DNA of 64,000 bases from Escherichia coli (GTDB lineage: Bacteria; Pseudomonadota; Gammaproteobacteria; Enterobacterales; Enterobacteriaceae), in assembly GCF_041886205.1 (NCBI RefSeq), contig NZ_CP169029.1. The stretch is one strand, 5' to 3'. The notes under the pieces were generated by a model. That model made no database searches and had not been told where the DNA came from. It was given only the letters and a program-made list of their open reading frames with translations. Positions 2 through 39,892 of the stretch are shown one piece after another. Both the position numbers and the translations under genes were made by a program. Within the stretch, counting starts at the first letter, position 1. Each line of letters begins with the position of its first letter.

Positions 2-739
2 GGCAAAATCAACTGGGGCATCGGCATAGGCCTTGCGGGAAGTACCTACAATAACAATTACCCGGAAGACCAGGCAGTGAAAAACTTTGTTGTGGCGAAT
101 ATCACAGGATCGGATTGTCGGCAGTTGATCCATGTTGAAAATGGTAAACATTTTGTTATTCGTAATATCAAAGCCAGCAATATCACGCCGGATTTCAGTA
201 AGAAAGCAGGTATTGATAACGCGACGGTCGCTATTTACGGTTGTGAGAATTTCGTGATTGATAATATTGAAATGATTAATAGCGCCGGGATGTTAATCGG
301 CTATGGGGTAATTAAAGGCAAATATCTCTCGATACCGCAAAATTTCCGAGTGAATAATATTCAGCTGGATAACACCCATCTTGCTTATAAATTGCGCGGT
401 ATCCAAATCTCCGCCGGGAATGCTGTCTCCTTTGTGGCGCTGACTAACATTGAGATGAAGCGTGCCTCGCTTGAGCTACACAACAAACCGCAACATCTTT
501 TTATGCGAAATATCAAGGTGATGCAGGAATCCTCAGTTGGACCCGCATTGAGCATGAACTTCGACATGCGCAAAGACGTTCGCGGCGTGTTTATGGCGAA
601 AAAAGAAACACTGCTGTCTCTTGCAAATGTTCATGCGGTGAATGAAAGAGGGCAAAGCTCCGTCGATATCGACAGGATTAATCACCATATTGTTAATGTG
701 GAAAAGATTAACTTTAGATTGCCGGAACGGAGAGAGTAG
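2..739 (+). CDS. wcaM: colanic acid biosynthesis protein WcaM, C-terminal part (gene starts upstream of the window)
   Basis: Frame is open from the window edge to the stop at 739; lies immediately upstream of gne/galF as at the colanic-acid/O-antigen junction; repetitive beta-helix-like sequence. Confidence 0.55.
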
Positions 740-896
740 ATTTGCGACCATTCATAAACTTACTGGATATAATGTTCTAAAAGATTATAATCCTCACACT
801 AACTGTTAAAGCTGGGGCTGGGCAGCATTGACTACTCAGGGAAGGTACTCATCTTTATCTTGTGTTTCTTACGTAACAACCAGACTAAAGTGATTT

Positions 897-1892
897 ATGA
901 ACGATAACGTTTTGCTCATAGGAGCTTCCGGATTCGTAGGAACCCGACTACTTGAAACGGCAATTGCTGACTTTAATATCAAGAACCTGGACAAACAGCA
1001 GAGCCACTTTTATCCAGAAATCACACAGATTGGTGATGTTCGTGATCAACAGGCACTCGACCAGGCGTTAGCCGGTTTTGACACTGTTGTGCTACTGGCA
1101 GCGGAACACCGCGATGACGTCAGCCCTACTTCTCTCTATTATGATGTCAACGTTCAGGGTACCCGCAATGTGCTGGCGGCCATGGAAAAAAATGGCGTTA
1201 AAAATATCATCTTTACCAGTTCCGTTGCTGTTTATGGTTTGAACAAACACAACCCTGACGAAAACCATCCACACGATCCCTTCAACCACTACGGCAAAAG
1301 TAAGTGGCAGGCAGAGGAAGTGCTGCGTGAATGGTATAACAAAGCACCAACAGAACGTTCATTAACCATCATCCGTCCTACCGTTATCTTCGGTGAACGG
1401 AACCGCGGTAACGTCTATAACTTGCTGAAACAGATCGCTGGCGGCAAGTTTATGATGGTGGGCGCAGGGACTAACTATAAGTCCATGGCTTATGTTGGAA
1501 ACATTGTTGAGTTTATCAAGTACAAACTGAAGAATGTTGCCGCAGGTTACGAGGTTTATAACTACGTTGATAAGCCAGACCTGAACATGAACCAGTTGGT
1601 TGCTGAAGTTGAACAAAGCCTGAACAAAAAGATCCCTTCTATGCACTTGCCTTACCCACTAGGAATGCTGGGTGGATATTGCTTTGATATCCTGAGCAAA
1701 ATTACGGGCAAAAAATACGCTGTCAGCTCTGTGCGCGTGAAAAAATTCTGCGCAACAACACAGTTTGACGCAACGAAAGTGCATTCTTCAGGTTTTGTGG
1801 CACCGTATACGCTGTCGCAAGGTCTGGATCGAACTCTGCAGTATGAATTCGTCCATGCCAAAAAAGACGACATAACGTTTGTTTCTGAGTAA
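897..1892 (+). CDS. gne: UDP-N-acetylglucosamine 4-epimerase (NAD-dependent epimerase/dehydratase family)
   Basis: 331 aa with N-terminal GxxGxxG Rossmann motif (LLIGASGFVGTRL); located between wcaM and galF as in O55/O157-type strains. Confidence 0.7.
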   Translation: MNDNVLLIGASGFVGTRLLETAIADFNIKNLDKQQSHFYPEITQIGDVRDQQALDQALAGFDTVVLLAAEHRDDVSPTSLYYDVNVQGTRNVLAAMEKNGVKNIIFTSSVAVYGLNKHNPDENHPHDPFNHYGKSKWQAEEVLREWYNKAPTERSLTIIRPTVIFGERNRGNVYNLLKQIAGGKFMMVGAGTNYKSMAYVGNIVEFIKYKLKNVAAGYEVYNYVDKPDLNMNQLVAEVEQSLNKKIPSMHLPYPLGMLGGYCFDILSKITGKKYAVSSVRVKKFCATTQFDATKVHSSGFVAPYTLSQGLDRTLQYEFVHAKKDDITFVSE

Positions 1893-2134
1893 TGCAGACG
1901 AGTCAGAGAAAAAAGGACCAGGTTGGACTACGATTATTCGGAAAGAGGTACTGATTAAATTATCAGTATGTGGATTTCCGAGTAATCCGAGTAACCCAGA
2001 TGCTGATGGTGTGTAGTGTTATCGTAAGGTTTAATCAAAGTTATGCGGAACTAAGCTTTGGTATATAGCCATAACGTTTGGCTAACCTATGGCAATAATT
2101 TACGCACTATCAGCCACTTAGAGGTAGGAAAAGA

Positions 2135-3028
2135 ATGACGAATTTAAAAGCAGTTATACCGGTAGCAGGTCTTGGGATGCATATGTTGCCTGCCACTAAG
2201 GCGATTCCCAAAGAGATGCTACCGATCGTCGACAAGCCAATGATTCAGTACATTGTTGACGAGATTGTGGCTGCAGGGATCAAAGAAATCCTCCTGGTAA
2301 CTCACGCGTCCAAGAACGCAGTCGAAAACCACTTCGACACCTCTTATGAATTAGAATCTCTCCTTGAACAGCGCGTGAAGCGTCAACTACTGGCGGAAGT
2401 ACAATCTATCTGTCCGCCGGGCGTGACCATTATGAACGTGCGTCAGGGTGAACCTTTAGGTTTAGGCCACTCCATTTTATGTGCGCGACCTGCCATTGGT
2501 GACAATCCATTTGTCGTGGTGCTGCCAGACGTTGTGATCGACGACGCCAGCGCCGACCCGTTGCGTTACAACCTTGCTGCCATGATTGCGCGCTTCAATG
2601 AAACGGGCCGTAGCCAGGTGCTGGCAAAACGTATGCCGGGTGACCTCTCTGAATACTCCGTCATCCAGACCAAAGAACCGCTGGATCGTGAAGGTAAAGT
2701 CAGCCGCATTGTTGAATTTATCGAAAAACCGGATCAGCCGCAGACGCTGGACTCAGACATAATGGCCGTTGGTCGCTATGTGCTTTCTGCCGATATTTGG
2801 CCGGAACTTGAACGCACTCAGCCTGGTGCATGGGGACGTATTCAGCTGACTGATGCCATTGCTGAACTGGCGAAAAAACAGTCCGTTGATGCCATGCTGA
2901 TGACAGGTGACAGCTACGACTGCGGTAAAAAAATGGGTTATATGCAGGCGTTTGTGAAGTATGGACTACGCAACTTGAAAGAAGGGGCGAAGTTCCGCAA
3001 AGGTATCGAGAAGCTGTTAAGCGAATAA
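2135..3028 (+). CDS. galF: UTP-glucose-1-phosphate uridylyltransferase paralog GalF
   Basis: 297 aa; conserved GalU/GalF N-terminus ([34 protein letters not shown]); conserved position upstream of the O-antigen cluster. Confidence 0.9.
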
Positions 3029-3257
3029 TGAAAATCTGACCGAATGTAACGGTTGATAAGGAAATAATAACGGCAGTGAAAAACTATAGATCAATAAATA
3101 TCACTGCTGTTGAGCGTTTATAATTAACTATGCTACCAATGAATAAATAGTGTGCAGATATGTATTTTTTGTTTGGTAGTCTTGTTTCTCCCTCTGAATA
3201 ATAAGATAATAAACGCTTGGAGATGATTTTTTTAACATGGATTATCATTTCGTACAC

Positions 3258-3296
3258 TGGTAGCGATTAAGCCAGGGGCGGTAGCGTGCATAAATT
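3258..3296 (+). promoter_or_regulatory. JUMPstart element with ops site (GGCGGTAGCGTG at about 3277-3288) for RfaH-dependent antitermination
   Basis: ops consensus read directly in the galF-wbdN intergenic region, preceded by the tggtagcg direct repeat typical of JUMPstart. Confidence 0.8.
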
Positions 3297-3346
3297 TTAA
3301 TGCTTATCAAAACTATTAGCATTAAAAATATATAAGAAATTCTCAA

Positions 3347-4129
3347 ATGAACAAAGAAACCGTTTCAATAATTATGCCCGTTTACAATGGGGCCAAAACT
3401 ATAATCTCATCAGTAGAATCAATTATACATCAATCTTATCAAGATTTTGTTTTGTATATCATTGACGATTGTAGCACCGATGATACATTTTCATTAATCA
3501 ACAGTCGATACAAAAACAATCAGAAAATAAGAATATTGCGTAACAAGACAAATTTAGGTGTTGCAGAAAGTCGAAATTATGGAATAGAAATGGCCACGGG
3601 GAAATATATTTCTTTTTGTGATGCGGATGATTTGTGGCACGAGAAAAAATTAGAGCGTCAAATCGAAGTGTTAAATAATGAATGTGTAGATGTGGTATGT
3701 TCTAATTATTATGTTATAGATAACAAAAGAAATATTGTTGGCGAAGTTAATGCTCCTCATGTGATAAATTATAGAAAAATGCTCATGAAAAACTACATAG
3801 GGAATTTGACAGGAATCTATAATGCCAACAAATTGGGTAAGTTTTATCAAAAAAAGATTGGTCACGAGGATTATTTGATGTGGCTGGAAATAATTAATAA
3901 AACAAATGGTGCTATTTGTATTCAAGATAATCTGGCGTATTACATGCGTTCAAATAATTCACTATCGGGTAATAAAATTAAAGCTGCAAAATGGACATGG
4001 AGTATATATAGAGAACATTTATATTTGTCCTTTCCAAAAACATTATATTATTTTTTATTATATGCTTCAAATGGAGTCATGAAAAAAATAACACATTCAC
4101 TATTAAGGAGAAAGGAGACTAAAAAGTGA
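3347..4129 (+). CDS. wbdN: family-2 glycosyltransferase (O157 O-unit assembly)
   Basis: 260 aa; GT2 N-terminal motif (VSIIMPVYNG ... IIDDCSTD ... DADD); first gene after JUMPstart; AT-rich. Confidence 0.75.
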   Translation: MNKETVSIIMPVYNGAKTIISSVESIIHQSYQDFVLYIIDDCSTDDTFSLINSRYKNNQKIRILRNKTNLGVAESRNYGIEMATGKYISFCDADDLWHEKKLERQIEVLNNECVDVVCSNYYVIDNKRNIVGEVNAPHVINYRKMLMKNYIGNLTGIYNANKLGKFYQKKIGHEDYLMWLEIINKTNGAICIQDNLAYYMRSNNSLSGNKIKAAKWTWSIYREHLYLSFPKTLYYFLLYASNGVMKKITHSLLRRKETKK

Positions 4130-5310
4130 AGTCAGCGGCTAAGTTGATTTTTTTATTCCTATTTACACTTTATAGTCTCCAGTTGTATGGGGTTATCATA
4201 GATGATCGTATAACAAATTTTGATACAAAGGTATTAACTAGTATTATAATTATATTTCAGATTTTTTTTGTTTTATTATTTTATCTAACGATTATAAATG
4301 AAAGAAAACAGCAGAAAAAATTTATCGTGAACTGGGAGCTAAAGTTAATACTCGTTTTCCTTTTTGTGACTATAGAAATTGCTGCTGTAGTTTTATTTCT
4401 TAAAGAAGGTATTCCTATATTTGATGATGATCCAGGGGGGGCTAAACTTAGAATAGCTGAAGGTAATGGACTTTACATTAGATATATTAAGTATTTTGGT
4501 AATATAGTTGTGTTTGCATTAATTATTCTTTATGATGAGCATAAATTCAAACAGAGGACCATCATATTTGTATATTTTACAACGATTGCTTTATTTGGTT
4601 ATCGTTCTGAATTGGTGTTGCTCATTCTTCAATATATATTGATTACCAATATCCTGTCAAAGGATAACCGTAATCCTAAAATAAAAAGAATAATAGGGTA
4701 TTTTTTATTGGTAGGGGTTGTATGCTCGTTGTTTTATCTAAGTTTAGGACAAGACGGAGAACAAAATGACTCATATAATAATATGTTAAGGATAATTAAT
4801 AGGTTAACAATAGAGCAAGTTGAAAGTGTTCCATATGTTGTTTCTGAATCTATTAAGAACGATTTCTTTCCGACACCAGAGTTAGAAAAGGAATTAAAAG
4901 CAATAATAAATAGAATACAGGGAATAAAGCATCAAGACTTATTTTATGGAGAACGGTTACATAAACAAGTATTTGGAGACATGGGAGCAAATTTTTTATC
5001 AGTTACTACGTATGGAGCAGAACTATTAGTTTTTTTTGGTTTTCTCTGTGTATTCATTATCCCTTTAGGGATATATATACCTTTTTATCTTTTAAAGAGA
5101 ATGAAAAAAACCCATAGCTCGATAAACTGCGCATTCTATTCATATATCATTATGATTTTATTGCAATACTTAGTGGCTGGGAATGCATCGGCCTTCTTTT
5201 TTGGTCCTTTTCTCTCCGTATTGATAATGTGTACTCCTCTGATCTTATTGCATGATACGTTAAAGAGATTATCACAAAATGAAAATATCAGTTATAACTG
5301 TGACTTATAA
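4126..5310 (+). CDS. wzy: O-antigen polymerase Wzy
   Basis: 394 aa, highly hydrophobic multi-spanning membrane protein, very AT-rich, position matches O157 cluster order. Confidence 0.75.
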   Translation: MKSAAKLIFLFLFTLYSLQLYGVIIDDRITNFDTKVLTSIIIIFQIFFVLLFYLTIINERKQQKKFIVNWELKLILVFLFVTIEIAAVVLFLKEGIPIFDDDPGGAKLRIAEGNGLYIRYIKYFGNIVVFALIILYDEHKFKQRTIIFVYFTTIALFGYRSELVLLILQYILITNILSKDNRNPKIKRIIGYFLLVGVVCSLFYLSLGQDGEQNDSYNNMLRIINRLTIEQVESVPYVVSESIKNDFFPTPELEKELKAIINRIQGIKHQDLFYGERLHKQVFGDMGANFLSVTTYGAELLVFFGFLCVFIIPLGIYIPFYLLKRMKKTHSSINCAFYSYIIMILLQYLVAGNASAFFFGPFLSVLIMCTPLILLHDTLKRLSQNENISYNCDL

Positions 5311-6025
5311 TAATGCTGAAGGGTTAGAAAAAACTTTAAGTAGTTTATCAATTTTAAAAATAAAACCTTTTGAGATTATTATAGTTGATGGCGGCTCTAC
5401 AGATGGAACGAATCGTGTCATTAGTAGATTTACTAGTATGAATATTACACATGTTTATGAAAAAGATGAAGGGATATATGATGCGATGAATAAGGGTCGA
5501 ATGTTGGCCAAAGGCGACTTAATACATTATTTAAACGCCGGCGATAGCGTAATTGGAGATATATATAAAAATATCAAAGAGCCATGTTTGATTAAAGTTG
5601 GCCTTTTCGAAAATGATAAACTTCTGGGATTTTCTTCTATAACCCATTCAAATACAGGGTATTGTCATCAAGGGGTGATTTTCCCAAAGAATCATTCAGA
5701 ATATGATCTAAGGTATAAAATATGTGCTGATTATAAGCTTATTCAAGAGGTGTTTCCTGAAGGGTTAAGATCTCTATCTTTGATTACTTCGGGTTATGTA
5801 AAATATGATATGGGGGGAGTATCTTCAAAAAAAAGAATTTTAAGAGATAAAGAGCTTGCCAAAATTATGTTTGAAAAAAACAAAAAAAACCTTATTAAGT
5901 TTATTCCAATTTCAATAATCAAAATTTTATTCCCTGAACGTTTAAGAAGAGTATTGCGGAAAATGCAATATATTTGTCTAACTTTATTCTTCATGAAGAA
6001 TAGTTCACCATATGATAATGAATAA
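5279..6025 (+). CDS. wbdO: family-2 glycosyltransferase
   Basis: 248 aa; GT2 motifs (ISVITVTYNN ... IIIVDGGSTDGT ... DAMNKG); position in O157 order. Confidence 0.75.
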   Translation: MKISVITVTYNNAEGLEKTLSSLSILKIKPFEIIIVDGGSTDGTNRVISRFTSMNITHVYEKDEGIYDAMNKGRMLAKGDLIHYLNAGDSVIGDIYKNIKEPCLIKVGLFENDKLLGFSSITHSNTGYCHQGVIFPKNHSEYDLRYKICADYKLIQEVFPEGLRSLSLITSGYVKYDMGGVSSKKRILRDKELAKIMFEKNKKNLIKFIPISIIKILFPERLRRVLRKMQYICLTLFFMKNSSPYDNE

Positions 6026-7403
6026 AATCAAAAAAATACTTAAATTTTGCACTTTAAAAAAATATGATACATCAAGTGCTTTAGGTAGAGAACAGGAAAG
6101 GTACAGGATTATATCCTTGTCTGTTATTTCAAGTTTGATTAGTAAAATACTCTCACTACTTTCTCTTATATTAACTGTAAGTTTAACTTTACCTTATTTA
6201 GGACAAGAGAGATTTGGTGTATGGATGACTATTACCAGTCTTGGTGCTGCTCTGACATTTTTGGACTTAGGTATAGGAAATGCATTAACAAACAGGATCG
6301 CACATTCATTTGCGTGTGGCAAAAATTTAAAGATGAGTCGGCAAATTAGTGGTGGGCTCACTTTGCTGGCTGGATTATCGTTTGTCATAACTGCAATATG
6401 CTATATTACTTCTGGCATGATTGATTGGCAACTAGTAATAAAAGGTATAAACGAGAATGTGTATGCAGAGTTACAACACTCAATTAAAGTCTTTGTAATC
6501 ATATTTGGACTTGGAATTTATTCAAATGGTGTGCAAAAAGTTTATATGGGAATACAAAAAGCCTATATAAGTAATATTGTTAATGCCATATTTATATTGT
6601 TATCTATTATTACTCTAGTAATATCGTCGAAACTACATGCGGGACTACCAGTTTTAATTGTCAGCACTCTTGGTATTCAATACATATCGGGAATCTATTT
6701 AACAATTAATCTTATTATAAAGCGATTAATAAAGTTTACAAAAGTTAACATACATGCTAAAAGAGAAGCTCCATATTTGATATTAAATGGTTTTTTCTTT
6801 TTTATTTTACAGTTAGGCACTCTGGCAACATGGAGTGGTGATAACTTTATAATATCTATAACATTGGGTGTTACTTATGTTGCTGTTTTTAGCATTACAC
6901 AGAGATTATTTCAAATATCTACGGTCCCTCTTACGATTTATAACATCCCGTTATGGGCTGCTTATGCAGATGCTCATGCACGCAATGATACTCAATTTAT
7001 AAAAAAGACGCTCAGAACATCATTGAAAATAGTGGGTATTTTATCATTCTTATTGGCCTTCATATTAGTAGTGTTCGGTAGTGAAGTCGTTAATATTTGG
7101 ACAGAAGGAAAGATTCAGGTACCTCGAACATTCATAATAGCTTATGCTTTATGGTCTGTTATTGATGCTTTTTCGAATACATTTGCAAGCTTTTTAAATG
7201 GTTTGAACATAGTTAAACAACAAATGCTTGCTGTTGTAACATTGATATTGATCGCAATTCCAGCAAAATACATCATAGTTAGCCATTTTGGGTTAACTGT
7301 TATGTTGTACTGCTTCATTTTTATATATATTGTAAATTACTTTATATGGTATAAATGTAGTTTTAAAAAACATATCGATAGACAGTTAAATATAAGAGGA
7401 TGA
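6012..7403 (+). CDS. wzx: O-antigen flippase Wzx
   Basis: 463 aa polytopic membrane protein with about 12 predicted TM segments; AT-rich; position in O157 order. Confidence 0.75.
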   Translation: MIMNKIKKILKFCTLKKYDTSSALGREQERYRIISLSVISSLISKILSLLSLILTVSLTLPYLGQERFGVWMTITSLGAALTFLDLGIGNALTNRIAHSFACGKNLKMSRQISGGLTLLAGLSFVITAICYITSGMIDWQLVIKGINENVYAELQHSIKVFVIIFGLGIYSNGVQKVYMGIQKAYISNIVNAIFILLSIITLVISSKLHAGLPVLIVSTLGIQYISGIYLTINLIIKRLIKFTKVNIHAKREAPYLILNGFFFFILQLGTLATWSGDNFIISITLGVTYVAVFSITQRLFQISTVPLTIYNIPLWAAYADAHARNDTQFIKKTLRTSLKIVGILSFLLAFILVVFGSEVVNIWTEGKIQVPRTFIIAYALWSVIDAFSNTFASFLNGLNIVKQQMLAVVTLILIAIPAKYIIVSHFGLTVMLYCFIFIYIVNYFIWYKCSFKKHIDRQLNIRG

Positions 7404-7405
7404 AA

Positions 7406-8500
7406 ATGAAATATATACCAGTTTACCAACCGTCATTGACAGGAAAAGAAAAAGAATATGTAAATGAATGTCTGGACTCAACGTGGATTTCATCAAAAGG
7501 AAACTATATTCAGAAGTTTGAAAATAAATTTGCGGAACAAAACCATGTGCAATATGCAACTACTGTAAGTAATGGAACGGTTGCTCTTCATTTAGCTTTG
7601 TTAGCGTTAGGTATATCGGAAGGAGATGAAGTTATTGTTCCAACACTGACATATATAGCATCAGTTAATGCTATAAAATACACAGGAGCCACCCCCATTT
7701 TCGTTGATTCAGATAATGAAACTTGGCAAATGTCTGTTAGTGACATAGAACAAAAAATCACTAATAAAACTAAAGCTATTATGTGTGTCCATTTATACGG
7801 ACATCCATGTGATATGGAACAAATTGTAGAACTGGCCAAAAGTAGAAATTTGTTTGTAATTGAAGATTGCGCTGAAGCCTTTGGTTCTAAATATAAAGGT
7901 AAATATGTGGGAACATTTGGAGATATTTCTACTTTTAGCTTTTTTGGAAATAAAACTATTACTACAGGTGAAGGTGGAATGGTTGTCACGAATGACAAAA
8001 CACTTTATGACCGTTGTTTACATTTTAAAGGCCAAGGATTAGCTGTACATAGGCAATATTGGCATGACGTTATAGGCTACAATTATAGGATGACAAATAT
8101 CTGCGCTGCTATAGGATTAGCCCAGTTAGAACAAGCTGATGATTTTATATCACGAAAACGTGAAATTGCTGATATTTATAAAAAAAATATCAACAGTCTT
8201 GTACAAGTCCACAAGGAAAGTAAAGATGTTTTTCACACTTATTGGATGGTCTCAATTCTAACTAGGACCGCAGAGGAAAGAGAGGAATTAAGGAATCACC
8301 TTGCAGATAAACTCATCGAAACAAGGCCAGTTTTTTACCCTGTCCACACGATGCCAATGTACTCGGAAAAATATCAAAAGCACCCTATAGCTGAGGATCT
8401 TGGTTGGCGTGGAATTAATCTACCTAGTTTCCCCAGCCTATCGAATGAGCAAGTTATTTATATTTGTGAATCTATTAACGAATTTTATAGTGATAAATAG
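7406..8500 (+). CDS. per: GDP-perosamine synthase (GDP-4-keto-6-deoxymannose 4-aminotransferase, DegT/AHBA family)
   Basis: Pyridoxal-phosphate aminotransferase of the DegT family (TTVSNGTVALHLAL ... FSFFGNKTITTGEGG); 364 aa from the MKYIPVYQP start; hallmark of the O157 perosamine pathway. Confidence 0.8.
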   Translation: MKYIPVYQPSLTGKEKEYVNECLDSTWISSKGNYIQKFENKFAEQNHVQYATTVSNGTVALHLALLALGISEGDEVIVPTLTYIASVNAIKYTGATPIFVDSDNETWQMSVSDIEQKITNKTKAIMCVHLYGHPCDMEQIVELAKSRNLFVIEDCAEAFGSKYKGKYVGTFGDISTFSFFGNKTITTGEGGMVVTNDKTLYDRCLHFKGQGLAVHRQYWHDVIGYNYRMTNICAAIGLAQLEQADDFISRKREIADIYKKNINSLVQVHKESKDVFHTYWMVSILTRTAEEREELRNHLADKLIETRPVFYPVHTMPMYSEKYQKHPIAEDLGWRGINLPSFPSLSNEQVIYICESINEFYSDK

Positions 8501-8524
8501 CCTAAAATATTGTAAAGGTCATTC

Positions 8525-9739
8525 ATGAAAATTGCGTTGAATTCAGATGGATTTTACGAGTGGGGCGGTGGAATTGATTTTATTAAATATATTCTGTCAA
8601 TATTAGAAACGAAACCAGAAATATGTATCGATATTCTTTTACCGAGAAATGATATACATTCTCTTATAAGAGAAAAAGCATTTCCTTTTAAAAGTATATT
8701 AAAAGCAATTTTAAAGAGGGAAAGGCCTCGATGGATTTCATTAAATAGATTTAATGAGCAATACTATAGAGATGCCTTTACACAAAATAATATAGAGACG
8801 AATCTTACCTTTATTAAAAGTAAGAGCTCTGCCTTTTATTCATATTTTGATAGTAGCGATTGTGATGTTATTCTTCCTTGCATGCGTGTTCCTTCGGGAA
8901 ATTTGAATAAAAAAGCATGGATTGGTTATATTTATGACTTTCAACACTGTTACTATCCTTCATTTTTTAGTAAGCGAGAAATAGATCAAAGGAATGTGTT
9001 TTTTAAATTGATGCTCAATTGCGCTAACAATATTATTGTTAATGCACATTCAGTTATTACCGATGCAAATAAATATGTTGGGAATTATTCTGCAAAACTA
9101 CATTCTCTTCCATTTAGTCCATGCCCTCAATTAAAATGGTTTGCTGATTACTCTGGTAATATTGCCAAATATAATATTGACAAGGATTATTTTATAATTT
9201 GCAATCAATTTTGGAAACATAAAGATCATGCAACTGCTTTTAGGGCATTTAAAATTTATACTGAATATAATCCTGATGTTTATTTAGTATGCACGGGAGC
9301 TACTCAAGATTATCGATTCCCTGGATATTTTAATGAATTGATGGTTTTGGCAAAAAAGCTCGGAATTGAATCGAAAATTAAGATATTAGGGCATATACCT
9401 AAACTTGAACAAATTGAATTAATCAAAAATTGCATTGCTGTAATACAACCAACCTTATTTGAAGGCGGGCCTGGAGGGGGGGTAACATTTGACGCTATTG
9501 CATTAGGGAAAAAAGTTATACTATCTGACATAGATGTCAATAAAGAAGTTAATTGCGGTGATGTATATTTCTTTCAGGCAAAAAACCATTATTCATTAAA
9601 TGACGCGATGGTAAAAGCTGATGAATCTAAAATTTTTTATGAACCTACAACTCTGATAGAATTGGGTCTCAAAAGACGCAATGCGTGTGCAGATTTTCTT
9701 TTAGATGTTGTGAAACAAGAAATTGAATCCCGATCTTAA
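8525..9739 (+). CDS. wbdP: family-1 (GT4-like) glycosyltransferase
   Basis: 404 aa; C-terminal EGGPGG-type motif of retaining glycosyltransferases; position in O157 order. Confidence 0.7.
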
Positions 9740-9758
9740 TATATTCAAGAGGTATATA

Positions 9759-10877
9759 ATGACTAAAGTCGCTCTTATTACAGGTGTAACTGGACAAGAT
9801 GGATCTTATCTAGCTGAGTTTTTGCTTGATAAAGGGTATGAAGTTCATGGTATCAAACGCCGAGCCTCATCTTTTAATACAGAACGCATAGACCATATTT
9901 ATCAAGATCCACATGGTTCTAACCCAAATTTTCACTTGCACTATGGAGATCTGACTGATTCATCTAACCTCACTAGAATTCTAAAGGAGGTACAGCCAGA
10001 TGAAGTATATAATTTAGCTGCTATGAGTCACGTAGCAGTTTCTTTTGAGTCTCCAGAATATACAGCCGATGTCGATGCAATTGGTACATTACGTTTACTG
10101 GAAGCAATTCGCTTTTTAGGATTGGAAAACAAAACGCGTTTCTATCAAGCTTCAACCTCAGAATTATATGGACTTGTTCAGGAAATCCCTCAAAAAGAAT
10201 CCACCCCTTTTTATCCTCGTTCCCCTTATGCAGTTGCAAAACTTTACGCATATTGGATCACGGTAAATTATCGAGAGTCATATGGTATTTATGCATGTAA
10301 TGGTATATTGTTCAATCATGAATCTCCACGCCGTGGAGAAACGTTTGTAACAAGGAAAATTACTCGAGGACTTGCAAATATTGCACAAGGCTTGGAATCA
10401 TGTTTGTATTTAGGGAATATGGATTCGTTACGAGATTGGGGACATGCAAAAGATTATGTTAGAATGCAATGGTTGATGTTACAACAGGAGCAACCCGAAG
10501 ATTTTGTGATTGCAACAGGAGTCCAATACTCAGTCCGTCAGTTTGTCGAAATGGCAGCAGCACAACTTGGTATTAAGATGAGCTTTGTTGGTAAAGGAAT
10601 CGAAGAAAAAGGCATTGTAGATTCGGTTGAAGGACAGGATGCTCCAGGTGTGAAACCAGGTGATGTCATTGTTGCTGTTGATCCTCGTTATTTCCGACCA
10701 GCTGAAGTTGATACTTTGCTTGGAGATCCGAGCAAAGCTAATCTCAAACTTGGTTGGAGACCAGAAATTACTCTTGCTGAAATGATTTCTGAAATGGTTG
10801 CCAAAGATCTTGAAGCCGCTAAAAAACATTCTCTTTTAAAATCGCATGGTTTTTCTGTAAGCTTAGCTCTGGAATGA
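9759..10877 (+). CDS. gmd: GDP-mannose 4,6-dehydratase
   Basis: 372 aa from [35 protein letters not shown], the canonical Gmd N-terminus. Confidence 0.95.
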
Positions 10878-10879
10878 TG

Positions 10880-11845
10880 ATGAATAAGCAACGTATTTTT
10901 ATTGCTGGTCACCAAGGAATGGTTGGATCAGCTATTACCCGACGCCTCAAACAACGTGATGATGTTGAGTTGGTTTTGCGTACTCGGGATGAATTGAACT
11001 TGTTGGATAGTAGCGCTGTTTTGGATTTTTTTTCTTCACAGAAAATCGACCAGGTTTATTTGGCAGCAGCAAAAGTCGGAGGTATTTTAGCTAACAGTTC
11101 TTATCCTGCCGATTTTATATATGAGAATATAATGATAGAGGCGAATGTCATTCATGCTGCCCACAAAAATAATGTAAATAAACTGCTTTTCCTCGGTTCG
11201 TCGTGTATTTATCCTAAGTTAGCACACCAACCGATTATGGAAGACGAATTATTACAAGGGAAACTTGAGCCAACAAATGAACCTTATGCTATCGCAAAAA
11301 TTGCAGGTATTAAATTATGTGAATCTTATAACCGTCAGTTTGGGCGTGATTACCGTTCAGTAATGCCAACCAATCTTTATGGTCCAAATGACAATTTTCA
11401 TCCAAGTAATTCTCATGTGATTCCGGCGCTTTTGCGCCGCTTTCATGATGCTGTGGAAAACAATTCTCCGAATGTTGTTGTTTGGGGAAGTGGTACTCCA
11501 AAGCGTGAATTCTTACATGTAGATGATATGGCTTCTGCAAGCATTTATGTCATGGAGATGCCATACGATATATGGCAAAAAAATACTAAAGTAATGTTGT
11601 CTCATATCAATATTGGAACAGGTATTGACTGCACGATTTGTGAGCTTGCGGAAACAATAGCAAAAGTTGTAGGTTATAAAGGGCATATTACGTTCGATAC
11701 AACAAAGCCCGATGGAGCCCCTCGAAAACTACTTGATGTAACGCTTCTTCATCAACTAGGTTGGAATCATAAAATTACCCTTCACAAGGGTCTTGAAAAT
11801 ACATACAACTGGTTTCTTGAAAACCAACTTCAATATCGGGGGTAA
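10880..11845 (+). CDS. fcl: GDP-L-fucose synthase family (GDP-4-keto-6-deoxymannose 3,5-epimerase/4-reductase); in the O157 pathway this step feeds perosamine/fucose branch
   Basis: 321 aa; conserved Fcl N-terminus ([16 protein letters not shown]) and short-chain dehydrogenase fold. Confidence 0.9.
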
Positions 11846-11847
11846 TA

Positions 11848-12357
11848 ATGTTTTTACATTCCCAAGACTTTGCCACAATTGTAAGGTCTACTCCTCTTAT
11901 TTCTATAGATTTGATTGTGGAAAACGAGTTTGGCGAAATTTTGCTAGGAAAACGAATCAACCGCCCGGCACAGGGCTATTGGTTCGTTCCTGGTGGTAGG
12001 GTGTTGAAAGATGAAAAATTGCAGACAGCCTTTGAACGATTGACAGAAATCGAACTAGGAATTCGTTTGCCTCTCTCTGTGGGTAAGTTTTATGGTATCT
12101 GGCAGCACTTCTACGAAGACAATAGTATGGGGGGAGACTTTTCAACGCATTATATAGTTATAGCATTCCTTCTTAAATTACAACCAAACATTTTGAAATT
12201 ACCGAAGTCACAACATAATGCTTATTGCTGGCTATCGCGAGCAAAGCTGATAAATGATGACGATGTGCATTATAATTGTCGCGCATATTTTAACAATAAA
12301 ACAAATGATGCGATTGGCTTAGATAATAAGGATATAATATGTCTGATGCGCCAATAA
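11848..12357 (+). CDS. gmm: GDP-mannose mannosyl hydrolase (Nudix)
   Basis: 169 aa; Nudix-like core ([29 protein letters not shown]); follows fcl as in GDP-sugar operons. Confidence 0.85.
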
Positions 12358-13787
12358 TTGCTGTAGTTATGGCCGGTGGTACAGGCAGTCGTCTTTGGCC
12401 ACTTTCTCGTGAACTATATCCAAAGCAGTTTTTACAACTCTCTGGTGATAACACCTTGTTACAAACGACTTTGCTACGACTTTCAGGCCTATCATGTCAA
12501 AAACCATTAGTGATAACAAATGAACAGCATCGCTTTGTTGTGGCTGAACAGTTAAGGGAAATAAATAAATTAAATGGTAATATTATTCTAGAACCATGCG
12601 GGCGAAATACTGCACCAGCAATAGCGATATCTGCGTTTCATGCGTTAAAACGTAATCCTCAGGAAGATCCATTGCTTCTAGTTCTTGCGGCAGACCACGT
12701 TATAGCTAAAGAAAGTGTTTTCTGTGATGCTATTAAAAATGCAACTCCCATCGCTAATCAAGGTAAAATTGTAACGTTTGGAATTATACCAGAATATGCT
12801 GAAACTGGTTATGGGTATATTGAGAGAGGTGAACTATCTGTACCGCTTCAAGGGCATGAAAATACTGGTTTTTATTATGTAAATAAGTTTGTTGAAAAGC
12901 CTAATCGTGAAACCGCAGAATTGTATGTGACTTCTGGTAATCACTATTGGAATAGTGGAATATTCATGTTTAAGGCATCTGTTTATCTTGAGGAATTGAG
13001 AAAATTTAGACCTGACATTTACAATGTTTGTGAACAGGTTGCCTCATCCTCATACATTGATCTAGATTTTATTCGATTATCAAAAGAACAATTTCAAGAT
13101 TGTCCTGCTGAATCTATTGATTTTGCTGTAATGGAAAAAACAGAAAAATGTGTTGTATGCCCTGTTGATATTGGTTGGAGTGACGTTGGATCTTGGCAAT
13201 CGTTATGGGACATTAGTCTAAAATCGAAAACAGGAGATGTATGTAAAGGTGATATATTAACCTATGATACTAAGAATAATTATATCTACTCTGAGTCAGC
13301 GTTGGTAGCCGCCATTGGAATTGAAGATATGGTTATCGTGCAAACTAAAGATGCCGTTCTTGTGTCTAAAAAGAGTGATGTACAGCATGTAAAAAAAATA
13401 GTCGAAATGCTTAAATTGCAGCAACGTACAGAGTATATTAGTCATCGTGAAGTTTTCCGACCATGGGGAAAATTTGATTCGATTGACCAAGGTGAGCGAT
13501 ACAAAGTCAAGAAAATTATTGTGAAACCTGGTGAGGGGCTTTCTTTAAGGATGCATCACCATCGTTCTGAACATTGGATCGTGCTTTCTGGTACAGCAAA
13601 AGTAACCCTTGGCGATAAAACTAAACTAGTCACCGCAAATGAATCGATATACATTCCCCTTGGCGCAGCGTATAGTCTTGAGAATCCGGGCATAATCCCT
13701 CTTAATCTTATTGAAGTCAGTTCAGGGGATTATTTGGGAGAGGATGATATTATAAGACAGAAAGAACGTTACAAACATGAAGATTAA
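12339..13787 (+). CDS. manC: mannose-1-phosphate guanylyltransferase / mannose-6-phosphate isomerase (bifunctional)
   Basis: 482 aa; N-terminal nucleotidyltransferase motif ([22 protein letters not shown]) and C-terminal cupin domain. Confidence 0.95.
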
Positions 13788-13790
13788 CAT

Positions 13791-15161
13791 ATGAAATCTT
13801 TAACCTGCTTTAAAGCCTATGATATTCGCGGGAAATTAGGCGAAGAACTGAATGAAGATATTGCCTGGCGCATTGGGCGTGCCTATGGCGAATTTCTCAA
13901 ACCGAAAACCATTGTTTTAGGCGGTGATGTCCGCCTCACCAGCGAAACCTTAAAACTGGCGCTGGCGAAAGGTTTACAGGATGCGGGCGTCGATGTGCTG
14001 GATATCGGTATGTCCGGCACCGAAGAGATCTATTTCGCCACGTTCCATCTCGGCGTGGATGGCGGCATTGAAGTTACCGCCAGCCATAATCCGATGGATT
14101 ATAACGGCATGAAACTGGTGCGCGAAGGGGCTCGCCCAATCAGCGGTGATACCGGACTGCGCGACGTCCAGCGTCTGGCAGAAGCCAACGACTTTCCTCC
14201 CGTCGATGAAACCAAACGCGGTCGCTATCAGCAAATCAACCTGCGTGACGCTTACGTTGATCACCTGTTCGGTTATATCAATGTCAAAAACCTCACGCCG
14301 CTCAAGCTGGTGATTAACTCCGGGAATGGCGCAGCGGGTCCGGTGGTGGACGCCATTGAAGCCCGCTTTAAAACCCTCGGCGCGCCCGTGGAATTGATCA
14401 AAGTGCACAACACGCCCGACGGCAATTTCCCCAACGGTATTCCTAATCCGCTGCTGCCTGAATGCCGCGACGACACCCGCAATGCGGTCATCAAACACGG
14501 CGCGGATATGGGCATTGCCTTTGATGGCGATTTTGACCGCTGTTTTCTGTTTGACGAAAAAGGGCAGTTTATCGAGGGCTACTACATTGTCGGCCTGCTG
14601 GCAGAAGCGTTCCTCGAAAAAAATCCCGGCGCGAAGATCATCCACGATCCGCGTCTCTCCTGGAACACCGTTGATGTGGTGACTGCCGCAGGCGGCACCC
14701 CGGTAATGTCGAAAACCGGACACGCCTTTATTAAAGAACGTATGCGCAAGGAAGACGCCATCTACGGTGGCGAAATGAGCGCCCACCATTACTTCCGTGA
14801 TTTCGCTTACTGCGACAGCGGCATGATCCCGTGGCTGCTGGTCGCCGAACTGGTGTGCCTGAAAGGAAAAACGCTGGGCGAACTGGTGCGCGACCGGATG
14901 GCTGCGTTTCCGGCAAGCGGTGAGATCAACAGCAAACTGGCGCAACCCGTTGAGGCGATTAATCGCGTCGAACAGCATTTTAGCCGTGAGGCGCTGGCGG
15001 TGGATCGTACCGATGGCATCAGCATGACCTTTGCCGACTGGCGCTTTAACCTGCGCTCTTCCAACACCGAACCGGTGGTGCGGTTGAATGTGGAATCACG
15101 CGGTGATGTAAAGCTAATGGAAAAGAAAACTAAAGCTCTTCTTAAATTGCTAAGTGAGTGA
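13791..15161 (+). CDS. manB: phosphomannomutase
   Basis: 456 aa; phosphohexomutase active-site motif ([13 protein letters not shown]); notably higher GC than neighbouring cluster genes. Confidence 0.95.
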
Positions 15162-15499
15162 TTATTTACATTAATCATTAAGCGTATTTAAGATTATATT
15201 AAAGTAATGTTATTGCGGTATATGATGAATATGTGGGCTTTTTTATGTATAACAACTATACCGCAACTTTATCTAGGAAAAGATTAATAGAAATAAAGTT
15301 TTGTACTGACCAATTTGCATTTCACGTCACGATTGAGACGTTCCTTTGCTTAAGACATTTTTTCATCGCTTATGTAATAACAAATGTGCCTTATATAAAA
15401 AGGAGAACAAAATGGAACTTAAAATAATTGAGACAATAGATTTTTATTATCCCTGTTTACGATATTATAGCCAAAGTTGTATCCTGCATCAGTCCTGCA

Positions 15500-16300
15500 A
15501 TATTTCACGAGTGCTTTGTTAACTGAATACATGTCTGCCATTTTCCAGATGATAACGACGTCATCACAATTGATGGTAAAACACTTCGGCACACTTATGA
15601 CAAGAGTCGTCGCAGAGGAGTGGTTCATGTCATTAGTGTGTTTCAGCAATGCACAGTCTGGTCCTCGGATAGATCAAGACGGATGAGAAACCTAATGCGT
15701 TCACAGTTATTCATGAACTTTCTAAAATGATGGGTATTAAAGGAAAAATAATCATAACTGATGCGATGGCTTGCCAGAAAGATATTGCAGAGAAGATATA
15801 AAAACAGAGATGTGATTATTTATTCGCTGTAAAAGGAAATAAGAGTCGGCTTAATAGAGTCTTTGAGGAGATATTTACGCTGAAAGAATTAAATAATCCA
15901 AAACATAACAGTTACGCAATTAGTGAAAAGAGGCACGGCAGAGACGATGTCCGTCTTCATATTGTTTGAGATGCTCCTGATGAGCTTATTGATTTCACGT
16001 TTGAATGGAAAGGGCTGCAGAATTTATGAATGGCAGTCCACTTTCTCTCAATAATAGCAGAGCAAAAGAAAGAATCCGAAATGACGATCAAATATTATAT
16101 TAGATCTGCTGCTTTAACCGCAGAGAAGTTCGCCACAGTAAATCGAAATCACTGGCGCATGGAGAATAAGTTGCACAGTAGCCTGATGTGGTAATGAATG
16201 AAATCGACTATAATATAAGAAGGCGAGTTGCATTCGAATGATTTTCTAGAATGCGGCACATCGCTACTAATATCTGACAATGATAATGTATTCAAGGCAG
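15500..16300 (+). pseudogene. decayed H-repeat/ISAs1-family transposase remnant (multiple stops and frameshifts)
   Basis: Translation shows ISAs1/H-repeat transposase blocks ([25 protein letters not shown] ... [12 protein letters not shown] ... YLFAVKGN ... [19 protein letters not shown] ... DELIDFTFEWKGL) broken over three frames; sits between manB and wbdR. Confidence 0.75.
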
Positions 16301-16423
16301 GATTATCATGTAAGATGCGAAAAGCAGTCATGGACAGAAACTTCCTAGCGTCAGGCATTGCAGCGTGCGGGCTTTCATAATCTTGCATTGGTTTTGATAA
16401 GATATTTCTTTGGAGATGGGAAA

Positions 16424-17089
16424 ATGAATTTGTATGGTATTTTTGGTGCTGGAAGTTATGGTAGAGAAACAATACCCATTCTAAATCAACAAATAAAGCA
16501 AGAATGTGGTTCTGACTATGCTCTGGTTTTTGTGGATGATGTTTTGGCAGGAAAGAAAGTTAATGGTTTTGAAGTGCTTTCAACCAACTGCTTTCTAAAA
16601 GCCCCTTATTTAAAAAAGTATTTTAATGTTGCTATTGCTAATGATAAGATACGACAGAGAGTGTCTGAGTCAATATTATTACACGGGGTTGAACCAATAA
16701 CTATAAAACATCCAAATAGCGTTGTTTATGATCATACTATGATAGGTAGTGGCGCTATTATTTCTCCCTTTGTTACAATATCTACTAATACTCATATAGG
16801 GAGGTTTTTTCATGCAAACATATACTCATACGTTGCACATGATTGTCAAATAGGAGACTATGTTACATTTGCTCCTGGGGCTAAATGTAATGGATATGTT
16901 GTTATTGAAGACAATGCATATATAGGCTCGGGTGCAGTAATTAAGCAGGGTGTTCCTAATCGCCCACTTATTATTGGCGCGGGAGCCATTATAGGTATGG
17001 GGGCTGTTGTCACTAAAAGTGTTCCTGCCGGTATAACTGTGTGCGGAAATCCAGCAAGAGAAATGAAAAGATCGCCAACATCTATTTAA
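16424..17089 (+). CDS. wbdR: perosamine N-acetyltransferase (left-handed beta-helix/hexapeptide acyltransferase)
   Basis: 221 aa from MNLYGIFGAGSYGRE; hexapeptide-repeat C-terminus (IGSGAVIKQGV ... IGAGAIIGMGAVV); last gene of the O157 cluster. Confidence 0.8.
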   Translation: MNLYGIFGAGSYGRETIPILNQQIKQECGSDYALVFVDDVLAGKKVNGFEVLSTNCFLKAPYLKKYFNVAIANDKIRQRVSESILLHGVEPITIKHPNSVVYDHTMIGSGAIISPFVTISTNTHIGRFFHANIYSYVAHDCQIGDYVTFAPGAKCNGYVVIEDNAYIGSGAVIKQGVPNRPLIIGAGAIIGMGAVVTKSVPAGITVCGNPAREMKRSPTSI

Positions 17090-17289
17090 AGGGAATGCGG
17101 AAACACGTTCCAAATGGGACTAATGTTTAAAATATATATAATTTCGCTAATTTACTAAATTATGGCTTCTTTTTAAGCTATCCTTTACTTAGTTATTACT
17201 GATACAGCATGAAATTTATAATACTCTGATACATTTTTATACGTTATTCAAGCCGCATATCTAGCGGTAACCCCTGACAGGAGTAAACA

Positions 17290-18696
17290 ATGTCAAAGCA
17301 ACAGATCGGCGTAGTCGGTATGGCAGTGATGGGGCGCAACCTAGCGCTCAACATCGAAAGCCGTGGTTATACCGTCTCTATTTTCAACCGCTCCCGTGAG
17401 AAGACGGAAGAAGTGATTGCCGAAAATCCAGGCAAGAAACTGGTTCCTTACTATACGGTGAAAGAGTTTGTTGAATCTCTGGAAACGCCTCGTCGCATCC
17501 TGTTAATGGTGAAAGCAGGTGCAGGCACGGATGCTGCTATTGATTCCCTCAAGCCGTACCTCGATAAAGGTGACATCATCATTGATGGTGGTAACACCTT
17601 CTTCCAGGACACCATTCGTCGTAACCGTGAGCTTTCTGCCGAAGGCTTTAACTTCATCGGTACCGGTGTTTCCGGCGGAGAAGAAGGCGCGCTGAAAGGT
17701 CCTTCCATTATGCCTGGTGGGCAGAAAGAAGCCTATGAACTGGTTGCGCCGATCCTGACCAAAATCGCCGCAGTGGCTGAAGACGGTGAGCCATGCGTTA
17801 CCTATATTGGTGCCGATGGCGCAGGTCACTATGTGAAGATGGTTCACAACGGTATTGAATACGGAGATATGCAACTGATTGCTGAAGCCTATTCTCTGCT
17901 TAAAGGTGGCCTGAACCTCACCAACGAAGAACTGGCGCAGACGTTTACCGAGTGGAATAACGGTGAACTGAGCAGCTACCTGATCGACATCACCAAAGAT
18001 ATCTTCACCAAAAAAGATGAAGACGGTAACTACCTGGTTGATGTGATCCTGGATGAAGCGGCTAACAAAGGTACCGGTAAATGGACCAGCCAGAGCGCAC
18101 TGGATCTCGGCGAACCGCTGTCGCTGATTACCGAGTCTGTGTTTGCACGTTATATCTCTTCTCTGAAAGATCAGCGTGTTGCCGCATCTAAAGTTCTCTC
18201 TGGCCCGCAAGCACAGCCAGCAGGCGACAAGGCTGAGTTCATCGAAAAAGTTCGCCGTGCGCTGTATCTGGGCAAAATCGTTTCTTACGCCCAGGGCTTC
18301 TCTCAGCTGCGTGCTGCGTCTGAAGAGTACAACTGGGATCTGAACTACGGCGAAATCGCGAAGATTTTCCGTGCTGGCTGCATCATTCGTGCGCAGTTCC
18401 TGCAGAAAATTACCGATGCTTATGCCGAAAATCCGCAGATCGCTAACCTGCTGCTGGCTCCGTACTTCAAGCAAATTGCCGATGATTACCAGCAGGCGCT
18501 GCGTGATGTCGTTGCTTATGCGGTACAGAACGGTATCCCGGTTCCGACCTTCGCCGCTGCGGTTGCCTATTACGATAGCTACCGTGCCGCTGTTCTGCCT
18601 GCGAACCTGATCCAGGCACAGCGTGACTATTTCGGTGCACATACTTATAAGCGCATTGATAAAGAAGGTGTGTTCCATACTGAATGGCTGGATTAA
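17290..18696 (+). CDS. gnd: 6-phosphogluconate dehydrogenase (decarboxylating)
   Basis: 468 aa; canonical N-terminus [30 protein letters not shown]. Confidence 0.98.
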
Positions 18697-18723
18697 TCTG
18701 ATTTAACCAACAGTAAAATTGAG

Positions 18724-18754
18724 GCCCGGCGTATATTGCACCGGGCTTTTTTTT
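18724..18754 (+). terminator. rho-independent terminator after gnd
   Basis: GC hairpin gcccgg...ccgggc followed by a run of 8 T. Confidence 0.6.
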
Positions 18755-18935
18755 GCCATTTATCTTATAGACTAAATTTCACTGCTTAATATTAACTTAA
18801 TAAATATCAGCTATTCTTATAAAGAAAATCTGAATTGTTTTTCGTAGCGTTGACCAGCTAATAACGTAGCGTTAAAACATTTAGCTCTTATCAGGATGCT
18901 AAAAACATCATGATTCACAGTTAAGTTAATTCTGA

Positions 18936-20111
<1,176 letters not shown>

Positions 20112-20257
20112 CATCTTGTTATCAGGGCGATTTTCGCCCTGATTGTCTGATGTTCCCTTTGTAATAATTCATTATTTTTATCATTTATCCTATAGCATTC
20201 ATGGCGATTATCGCTAAACTATGGCGACTTAAAATTATTTCGTCCGTTAGGGTAATG

Positions 20258-21235: not shown

Positions 21236-21253
21236 TCTTTGCAGCTTTAAAGA

Positions 21254-21290
21254 AAACGGGCAGGGTGGTGACACCTTGCCCGTTTTTTTT
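21254..21290 (+). terminator. rho-independent terminator after wzz
   Basis: Hairpin aacgggcagggtg...caccttgcccgtt followed by a run of 8 T; a second hairpin (ggatgcga...tcgcatcc) follows at about 21293-21318. Confidence 0.6.
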
Positions 21291-21331
21291 GCCGGATGCG
21301 ACAACAACATCGCATCCGCTTACCCCGCAAC

Positions 21332-21943
21332 TCACTGATGCCGTTTGCGCAGGTTCTCAATCACCGTCGTTAAGTCCAGATCCTGATCCTGCAACAATAC
21401 CAGCAGGTGATACATCAAATCAGATGCCTCGTTGGTCAGCTCAAAGCGGTCATGTACCGTTGCTGCCAGTGCGGTTTCCACGCCTTCTTCGCCCACTTTT
21501 TGCGCAATGCGTTTGGTGCCGCTGGCATACAGTTTGGCAGTGTAAGAGGTTTCCGGGTCGGCAGATTTGCGTTCGGCGAGCAATTGTTCCAGTTGATACA
21601 GGAACAGCCATTGGTGAGCGGTGTCGCCGAAGCAGCTGCTGGTGCCTTTGTGGCAGGTCGGACCGATGGGATTAGCCAGCACTAATAAAGTGTCGTTGTC
21701 GCAGTCCGGTGCAATACTCACCACATTGAGGAAATTGCCCGACGTTTCGCCTTTGGTCCACAGTCGCTGTTTAGTGCGCGAGAAGAAGGTGACTTTGCCG
21801 CTTTCGATGGTTTTGTCTAAGGCTTCCGGGTTCATATAGCCCAGCATTAACACTTCGCCGGATACCGCGTGTTGCACAATCACCGGCATCAGTCCGTCGG
21901 TTTTTTCCCAGTCCAGTTCGCGACGTTGTTGTTCTGTTAACAT
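21332..21943 (-). CDS. hisI: bifunctional phosphoribosyl-AMP cyclohydrolase / phosphoribosyl-ATP pyrophosphatase
   Basis: 203 aa; [38 protein letters not shown], canonical HisIE. Confidence 0.97.
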
Positions 21944-22278: not shown

Positions 22279-22279
22279 A

Positions 22280-27475
<5,196 letters not shown>

Positions 27476-27480
27476 GGCGA

Positions 27481-28380: not shown

Positions 28381-28428
28381 TTTCTTATTCCTCTTTAAAC
28401 CTGTCTGAACCGTTATCAACCGCGCAAT

Positions 28429-28462: not shown

Positions 28463-28525
28463 TTCTCATGCGTTCATGCACCACTGGAAGATCTGAATGT
28501 CTTCCAGCACACATCGCCTGAAAGA

Positions 28526-39890: not shown

Positions 39891-39892
39891 AG

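Follow-up and report, generated by a model that had tools for sequence, protein, structure and literature searches.

The window analyzed here, a 64-kb (64,000-nucleotide) stretch of Escherichia coli contig NZ_CP169029.1, carries at positions 3258 to 17089 what we read, at a probability of about 0.96 on the evidence of its sequence, as an intact E. coli O157 O-antigen (rfb) gene cluster of the Wzx/Wzy-dependent type, located at the galF-gnd site of a non-H7 E. coli host. The O157 rfb cluster is already known and is among the best-studied O-antigen loci, with a report by Wang and Reeves in 1998 said to be the first description of it in E. coli O157:H7, and it is treated here as a plain serotype marker rather than as a discovery. 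By this cluster the strain belongs to serogroup O157, and the surface polysaccharide to be expected of it can be told from the genes; the understanding of O-antigen genetics is left unchanged.

Identification of the cluster

An initial annotation, made from the letters of the window, had proposed a complete perosamine-type cluster with the gene order GT2 glycosyltransferase, wzy, GT2, wzx, DegT-family aminotransferase (per), glycosyltransferase, gmd, fcl, Nudix, manC, manB, insertion sequence (IS) remnant, and hexapeptide acetyltransferase. Exactly this order was recovered, as 12 intact open reading frames (ORFs) on the plus strand (Table 1), and Pfam and NCBIfam searches agreed gene by gene with the family labels that had been given. 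The JUMPstart/ops element placed ahead of the cluster was found by its Rfam model above the gathering score; the ops motif occurs once in the window (0.08 expected), as GGCGGTAGCGTG at 3277-3288, and galF and gnd proved to be the boundaries, as had been named. The proposed start at 3258 falls within the JUMPstart element, and the end at 17089 is the perB stop codon. None of the 12 cluster genes contains an internal stop or a frameshift, and all are at reference length. The term "complete" holds for these genes, but the gene for the 4-epimerase acting on undecaprenyl pyrophosphate (Und-PP)-linked N-acetylglucosamine (GlcNAc), which is required for the N-acetylgalactosamine of the O unit, lies outside 3258-17089.

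We compared the cluster with 5,426 complete E. coli genomes, using megablast for 3258-17089 and a more sensitive word-11 blastn for the wzy-wbdO-wzx block (4126-7403). The whole 13.8-kb interval aligned ungapped, with 100% coverage and 99.6 to 99.7% identity, in 305 of the genomes, which are O157:H7, O157:H16 or O157 wherever a serotype is named, and whose genes bear the annotations "O157 family O-antigen polymerase," "O157 family O-antigen flippase," "GDP-perosamine synthase RfbE/PerA," and "GDP-perosamine N-acetyltransferase." Typing by wzx and wzy, which had been suggested as a check, pointed to O157 only: the block matched 305 genomes, each at at least 99% identity and with O157 family polymerase and flippase annotations, and no match to another serogroup was obtained in the word-11 search. 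The most divergent O157 genome in this search was O157:H16 98-3133 (99.3%), which probably represents the other published O157 cluster type. One of the 305 block matches sits on a record labeled as a plasmid rather than a chromosome, probably a mislabeled replicon.

For the gene-wise comparison we used two annotated references, O157:H16 Res13 and O157:H7 493/89, both of which aligned without gaps. Outside manB there were 0 to 3 single-nucleotide polymorphisms (SNPs) per gene, and 8 of the 12 proteins were identical to those of both references. The wzy gene showed no nucleotide difference from Res13 and three from 493/89, while per (rfbE, the standard O157 PCR target; 7406-8500) showed none from either. 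A database check of per homology, also suggested at the outset, returned a RefSeq protein identical to the predicted product and named "GDP-perosamine synthase RfbE/PerA" (WP_000875215.1), and the top three matches among solved structures in the PDB were all perosamine synthetases (3bn1, E value of 2.5e-102; 3dr4; 3dr7). The best NCBIfam hidden Markov model (HMM) match of Per was LegC, below its cutoff (393 versus 420). O157 Wzx, Wzy and Per have no dedicated NCBIfam HMM, and these were identified through near-identity to annotated, characterized O157 genes. The PDB relatives of PerB are left-handed beta-helix (LbH) N-acetyltransferases, including Caulobacter PerB (4ea7). Within 3258-17089 no ORF for a wzm/wzt-type ABC transporter was found, and wzx, wzy and wzzB are all present, as expected for the Wzx/Wzy-dependent pathway. 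The window thus has the galF-gnd location, the gene content and order, the wzx and wzy alleles, and the rfbE (per) gene of an O157 cluster, and we found no sequence evidence opposing this assignment.

Table 1 Features of the O-antigen region of the window. Start positions of per (7406), gmd (9759), fcl (10880), and perB (16424) were corrected from mechanical ORF calls to the annotated ones; aa, amino acids.
Feature	Position	Strand	Evidence
gne/gnu (Z3206-type), Und-PP-GlcNAc 4-epimerase, 331 aa	897..1892	+	Identical to WP_000999466.1 (N-acetyl-alpha-D-glucosaminyl-diphospho-undecaprenol 4-epimerase); Pfam Epimerase PF01370
galF, upstream boundary	2135..3028	+	Protein identical to WP_000183060.1 GalF
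JUMPstart with ops	3251..3288	+	Rfam RF01707, 39.9 bits versus gathering score of 35
wbdN, GT2 beta-1,3-glucosyltransferase (glucose to N-acetylgalactosamine-PP-Und), 260 aa	3347..4129	+	PF00535, 121.9 bits
wzy, O157 O-antigen polymerase, 394 aa	4126..5310	+	TIGR04370 repeat-unit polymerase, 44.7 bits versus cutoff of 40; annotated "O157 family O-antigen polymerase"
wbdO, GT2 glycosyltransferase, putative fucosyltransferase, 248 aa	5279..6025	+	PF00535, 55.4 bits; identical to both references
wzx, O157 O-unit flippase, 463 aa	6012..7403	+	Pfam MatE, 33.3 bits; annotated "O157 family O-antigen flippase"
per (rfbE), GDP-perosamine synthase, DegT-family aminotransferase, 364 aa	7406..8500	+	PF01041, 428 bits; identical to WP_000875215.1
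wbdP, GT4-type glycosyltransferase, putative N-acetylperosamine transferase, 404 aa	8525..9739	+	Glycos_transf_1 PF00534, 49 bits; annotated glycosyltransferase family 4; identical to references
gmd, GDP-mannose 4,6-dehydratase, 372 aa	9759..10877	+	TIGR01472, 587.7 bits versus cutoff of 415; identical to references
fcl, GDP-L-fucose synthase, 321 aa	10880..11845	+	NF047922, 539 bits versus cutoff of 500; identical to references
gmm (wbdQ), Nudix GDP-mannose mannosyl hydrolase, 169 aa	11848..12357	+	NF011963, 277 bits versus cutoff of 146
manC, mannose-1-phosphate guanylyltransferase/mannose-6-phosphate isomerase, 482 aa	12339..13787	+	TIGR01479, 778.7 bits versus cutoff of 373
manB, phosphomannomutase, 456 aa	13791..15161	+	Four PGM_PMM domains
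Degraded ISAs1-family (H-repeat, ISEc1/ISEc5-like) element	~15275..16395	+	RefSeq pseudogene at equivalent of 15449-16380
perB (wbdR), GDP-perosamine N-acetyltransferase, 221 aa	16424..17089	+	Hexapep and PglD_N; identical to WP_001055391.1 of O157:H7
gnd, downstream boundary, non-H7 allele	17290..18696	+	0 nucleotide differences from O157:H16 Res13; protein identical or near-identical to RefSeq GndA
wzzB, O-chain length regulator, 325 aa	20258..21235	+	Pfam Wzz PF02706; exact protein in many assemblies, including O157 assembly GCA_052936215.1

Variation within the cluster

Relative to the O157 references, the cluster carries about 45 to 55 differences in total, 37 to 38 of which fall in manB (13947-15059), mostly at third codon positions. 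This gene is a mosaic: from about position 13950 it is GC rich (0.56) and cpsG-like, and this GC-rich 3' part (∼1.1 to 1.2 kb) is 95 to 99% identical to the colanic-acid phosphomannomutase gene cpsG in ∼4,600 E. coli genomes, indicating native E. coli sequence inside an AT-rich imported cassette. The differences in the 3' part fit a recurrent exchange between the paralogues manB and cpsG, the genome's own cpsG lying upstream of the window. In published work, manB is the sole variable gene among "Sakai-type" O157 clusters (PMC3158064).

Two of the remaining changes, WbdN H226Y and Wzx S344L, are single amino acid differences from both the O157:H7 and the O157:H16 reference proteins. An exact-protein look-up of the ManB sequence led to a public assembly, GCA_036254195.1, whose contig JAYLPW010000014.1 matches the window over 3791-22275 (18.5 kb) except for one synonymous site at 14447 and has the same manB allele and the same WbdN and Wzx variants. 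The existence of this near-identical assembly indicates that the manB allele and both missense changes are natural strain variation. Another species or a corrupted sequence as the source of the ∼0.3 to 0.4% divergence from the 305 O157 genomes was ruled out, given that the changes are concentrated in manB, lie mostly at third codon positions, and recur as the same alleles in that assembly.

Between manB and perB lies the IS remnant, which is 82 to 83% identical at the nucleotide level to ISEc1/ISEc5 copies, with deletions and many stops. It contains short ORFs only, for which Pfam gave a weak, subthreshold DDE_Tnp_1 match, and it was the similarity at the DNA level that identified the element. 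RefSeq notes a "frameshifted; internal stop; incomplete" ISAs1 transposase here in every O157 genome inspected.

As a side observation, long antisense ORFs within manB (13974-14978) and gnd (17503-18678) were taken as by-products of GC-rich coding sequence and not as genes.

Origin of the cassette

The low GC content of the processing genes relative to the flanks, another point of the initial annotation, was borne out by calculation across the cluster. The GC content is 0.30 to 0.31 in wbdN, wzy, wbdO, wzx, and wbdP, 0.35 in per, 0.38 to 0.39 from gmd to manC, and 0.37 in perB, compared with 0.50 in galF and 0.51 in gnd; within the cluster, manB is the exception, at 0.54. Only ∼2939-17342 is nearly identical to O157:H7, an interval that opens at the 3' end of galF and closes where gnd begins; the last galF nucleotide difference, at 2938, shows where the shared cassette starts on its left side. 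A limited stretch of identity of this kind is the classical mark of lateral exchange of an O-antigen cassette, and the AT-rich O157 cassette is one that has spread among E. coli lineages via horizontal transfer.

The cluster appears to be of the "Sakai-type," going by the absence of per (rfbE) differences from 493/89 and Res13, the references used in place of the Sakai rfbE. Sakai-type clusters in O157:non-H7 strains (Iguchi et al. 2011, PMC3158064) have the same gene organization, a conservation limited to the cluster, a variable manB, and lineages unrelated to O157:H7, and the window shows the same pattern. We lean, with some reservation, toward a reading in which a commensal backbone resembling E. 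coli B/REL606 gained a Sakai-type O157 cassette in an independent lateral event. Relative to O157:H7, one junction would fall at the 3' end of galF (∼2939) and the other where gnd begins (∼17343), the private manB allele would stem from exchange with the colanic-acid cpsG, and the lineage-specific changes WbdN H226Y and Wzx S344L would have arisen later. If this is true, the strain would be picked up by O157 assays for rfbE, wzx or wzy and yet stand outside the O157:H7 lineage. The gain of O157 cassettes by non-H7 lineages has already been published for other O157:non-H7 strains, as have the two sequence types of the cluster and the variability of manB (PMC3158064).

Serogroup, pathotype, and expression

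Perosamine pathways are known in several genera (PMC5981137), and the closest solved structure to Per comes from Caulobacter, which would leave room for an O157-like perosamine cluster from another serogroup or species, such as a cross-reacting O antigen of Salmonella or Citrobacter. The chance of this is close to nil, since wzx and wzy are 99.8 to 99.9% identical to those of E. coli O157, the flanking genes are all E. coli (97 to 99.9% identity), and the layout of the locus is that of E. coli, a galF-gnd site preceded by the colanic-acid gene wcaM and followed by the his operon. Within serogroup O157, the question is whether the cluster marks an enterohemorrhagic (EHEC) O157:H7 strain, as its O157-specific genes match those of O157:H7 strains, Sakai and EDL933 among them, at 99.8% identity, and the Per and PerB proteins are identical to those of O157:H7 493/89. 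This is highly improbable in light of the surrounding sequence, in which neither an O157:H7-type gnd allele nor an O157:H7-type flanking backbone is found: gnd differs from that of 493/89 at 51 of 1,407 sites and from that of O157:H16 Res13 at none, and wcaM, gne, and galF have 37, 7, and 20 differences, respectively, from O157:H7 (and differ from the O157:H16 reference as well). Farther downstream, 40750-55945 and 58645-64000 are 99.9% identical to E. coli B REL606. In addition, near-identical loci contain yefM-yoeB, which Sakai does not have (PMC3158064), and stx, eae, and fliC were not found within the window. Judged by these alleles, the host falls outside the O157:H7 lineage. Given this non-H7 gnd allele and backbone, the cluster is an O-group marker and not a pathotype marker, so that its earlier description as a serotype marker holds for the O group but does not extend to EHEC O157:H7. 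The O157 diagnostic targets (rfbE/per, wzx, and wzy) will be positive for this strain, and O-group markers alone would overcall the risk.

It is also conceivable that the cluster is present yet silent, giving a rough or O-non-typeable strain, either through missense changes, given that neither reference strain has WbdN H226Y or Wzx S344L, or through a polar effect of the IS remnant, which sets perB apart from the rest of the operon. We consider this very unlikely. The remnant occurs at the same position, with 99.6 to 99.9% identity, in all 305 O157 genomes, serologically typed O157 strains among them, and a 300-bp fragment upstream of wbdR (perB) has served in published work as the gene's own promoter (PMC5981137); the corresponding primer maps to 16125-16147 of the window, so that the fragment starts at 16125. 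Moreover, the cluster genes are free of frameshifts and stops, and the DxDD motif of WbdN, described as essential (PMC4202792), is intact (D92-A-D-D95).

Some observations set limits to the reading as an intact, working O157 cluster. The two missense changes are absent from both reference strains, although both occur in GCA_036254195.1. Promoter and terminator scans of the galF-wbdN spacer, with the promoter scan upstream of JUMPstart, and of the manB-gnd region, with a consensus promoter scan ahead of perB, did not exceed shuffled controls. The wecA and waaL genes lie outside the window, and production of the O157 antigen by this strain is a prediction from its genes. Finally, the putative roles of WbdO as the fucosyltransferase and of WbdP as the N-acetylperosamine (PerNAc) transferase are derived from glycosyltransferase-family stereochemistry.

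Predicted O-unit biosynthesis

In this analysis we determined gene content, gene integrity, and identity to characterized O157 genes, and the enzyme chemistry of the following route is established knowledge. Transcription would read in from upstream of the JUMPstart/ops element, where RfaH would be recruited for antitermination. ManB and ManC would provide GDP-mannose, from which Gmd would form GDP-4-keto-6-deoxymannose, and this intermediate would be split between two branches, one leading through Fcl to GDP-L-fucose and the other through transamination by Per to GDP-perosamine and, by the action of PerB, to GDP-N-acetylperosamine. The Nudix enzyme Gmm would hydrolyze GDP-mannose, probably tuning its pool. 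The last step of the perosamine branch has an experimental counterpart: wbdR of O157:H7, when moved into Brucella, made N-acetylperosamine and was able to replace the Brucella formyltransferase, showing that its product is a perosamine N-acetyltransferase (PMC5981137). The PerB protein encoded in the window is identical to this wbdR product.

The O unit would be built on undecaprenyl pyrophosphate. WecA would add GlcNAc phosphate, and the epimerase encoded upstream of galF would make Und-PP-linked N-acetylgalactosamine (GalNAc), an activity credited to Rush et al. 2010 where PMC7685785 cites them. WbdN would next add beta-1,3-linked glucose (Glc) to Und-PP-GalNAc, the assignment being that of Gao et al. 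2012, again as cited in PMC7685785. WbdO, an inverting GT2 enzyme, would add alpha-L-fucose (Fuc) from GDP-beta-L-Fuc, and WbdP, a retaining GT4 enzyme, would add alpha-D-PerNAc. Wzx would flip the resulting tetrasaccharide, Wzy would polymerize it, and WzzB would set the chain length. The published O157 repeat is ->2)-alpha-D-Rha4NAc-(1->3)-alpha-L-Fuc-(1->4)-beta-D-Glc-(1->3)-alpha-D-GalNAc-(1-> (PMC5981137).

Related systems

A close relative is the O157:H7 rfb cluster of Sakai, EDL933, and 493/89, which has the same 12 genes and H-repeat remnant in the same order, at the same galF-gnd site and with the same JUMPstart element, and aligns ungapped at 99.6% nucleotide identity. The Per, PerB, WbdO, WbdP, Gmd, Fcl, and Gmm proteins are identical between the two, whereas the window differs by 38 manB SNPs, by WbdN H226Y, Wzx S344L, Wzy R384Q, and ManC M197V, and by its wcaM, gne, galF, and gnd alleles.

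Two other systems share parts of the pathway. The five enzyme families of the GDP-fucose module of colanic acid (gmd-fcl-gmm-cpsB-cpsG) recur in the O157 cluster without a change of order; however, gmd to manC of the window are AT rich (GC content as given above) and part of the O-antigen cassette, whereas the wca operon ends at wcaM (1-739 of the window). The perosamine pathways of Caulobacter crescentus (Per, 3bn1/3dr4; PerB, 4ea7), Vibrio cholerae O1, and Brucella use the same DegT-type GDP-perosamine synthase chemistry, with PerB as an LbH N-acyltransferase, but have the precursor enzymes alone in common with the window, whose glycosyltransferases, wzx, wzy, and O-unit structure are O157 specific.

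The his operon and other regions of the window

Downstream of the cluster, the his operon (minus strand) has, at 22276-25423, a block of 3,148 bp that does not touch the cluster and stands in for 3,133 bp that would comprise the 5' part of hisF, hisA, hisH, hisB, and the 3' part of hisC. The block contains no ORF of at least 150 amino acids. The larger portion of it, 22276-24650, had no blastn match in the 5,426 E. coli genomes, while 24651-25423 is a noisy copy of hisB/hisC with ∼75% identity and ∼100 gap columns. The similarity to the his genes fades along the direction of his transcription and jumps back to 100% at 22275. The composition of the block looks vertebrate-like rather than bacterial, with an observed/expected ratio of 0.61 for CpG (versus 1.13 to 1.2 in three unaffected flanking stretches) and of ∼1.5 for TpG/CpA, and the block contains runs of (CA)n and of (CT)n and lacks a 3-base periodicity. 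The his operon is intact at this position in the two nearest public genomes, GCA_036254195.1 and GCA_052936215.1, the former of which, unlike the window, continues from 22276 onward with intact hisF, hisA, hisH, and hisB. The truncated HisC product of the block is not on record in public assemblies. The block is probably a sequence or assembly artifact or a nonbiological replacement. The his leader (RF00514; 28427-28550, minus strand; 131.6 bits, above the gathering score), hisG, and hisD are intact. A match to the enterobacterial small RNA STnc240 (RF02074; 68.2 bits, above the gathering score) lies at 31289-31363 on the plus strand.

The best reference for the backbone switches at 40001-41448: 24651-40000 is ∼97% identical to an O157:H16-like flank, and from 40750 on the window is 99.9% REL606-like. 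An IS3-type integrase-core fragment (rve, 218 amino acids) at 40792-41448 marks a possible recombination or IS-associated junction. Three equal-scoring, identical tRNA matches were found at 46869-46941 (minus strand), 49278-49350 (minus strand), and 51099-51171 (plus strand), the REL606 equivalents of which are annotated as tRNA-Asn and flank nac-cbl and yeeO. This asn-tRNA region, a known hotspot of island integration, contains no inserted island relative to REL606. A 2.7-kb insertion relative to REL606, at 55946-58644, lies in or beside a GT9 pseudogene region and is an IS66-family element, annotated as ISCro1-like in related genomes, that encodes an IS66-family transposase (523 amino acids; DDE_Tnp_IS66, 344 bits) and an HTH_Tnp_1 protein.

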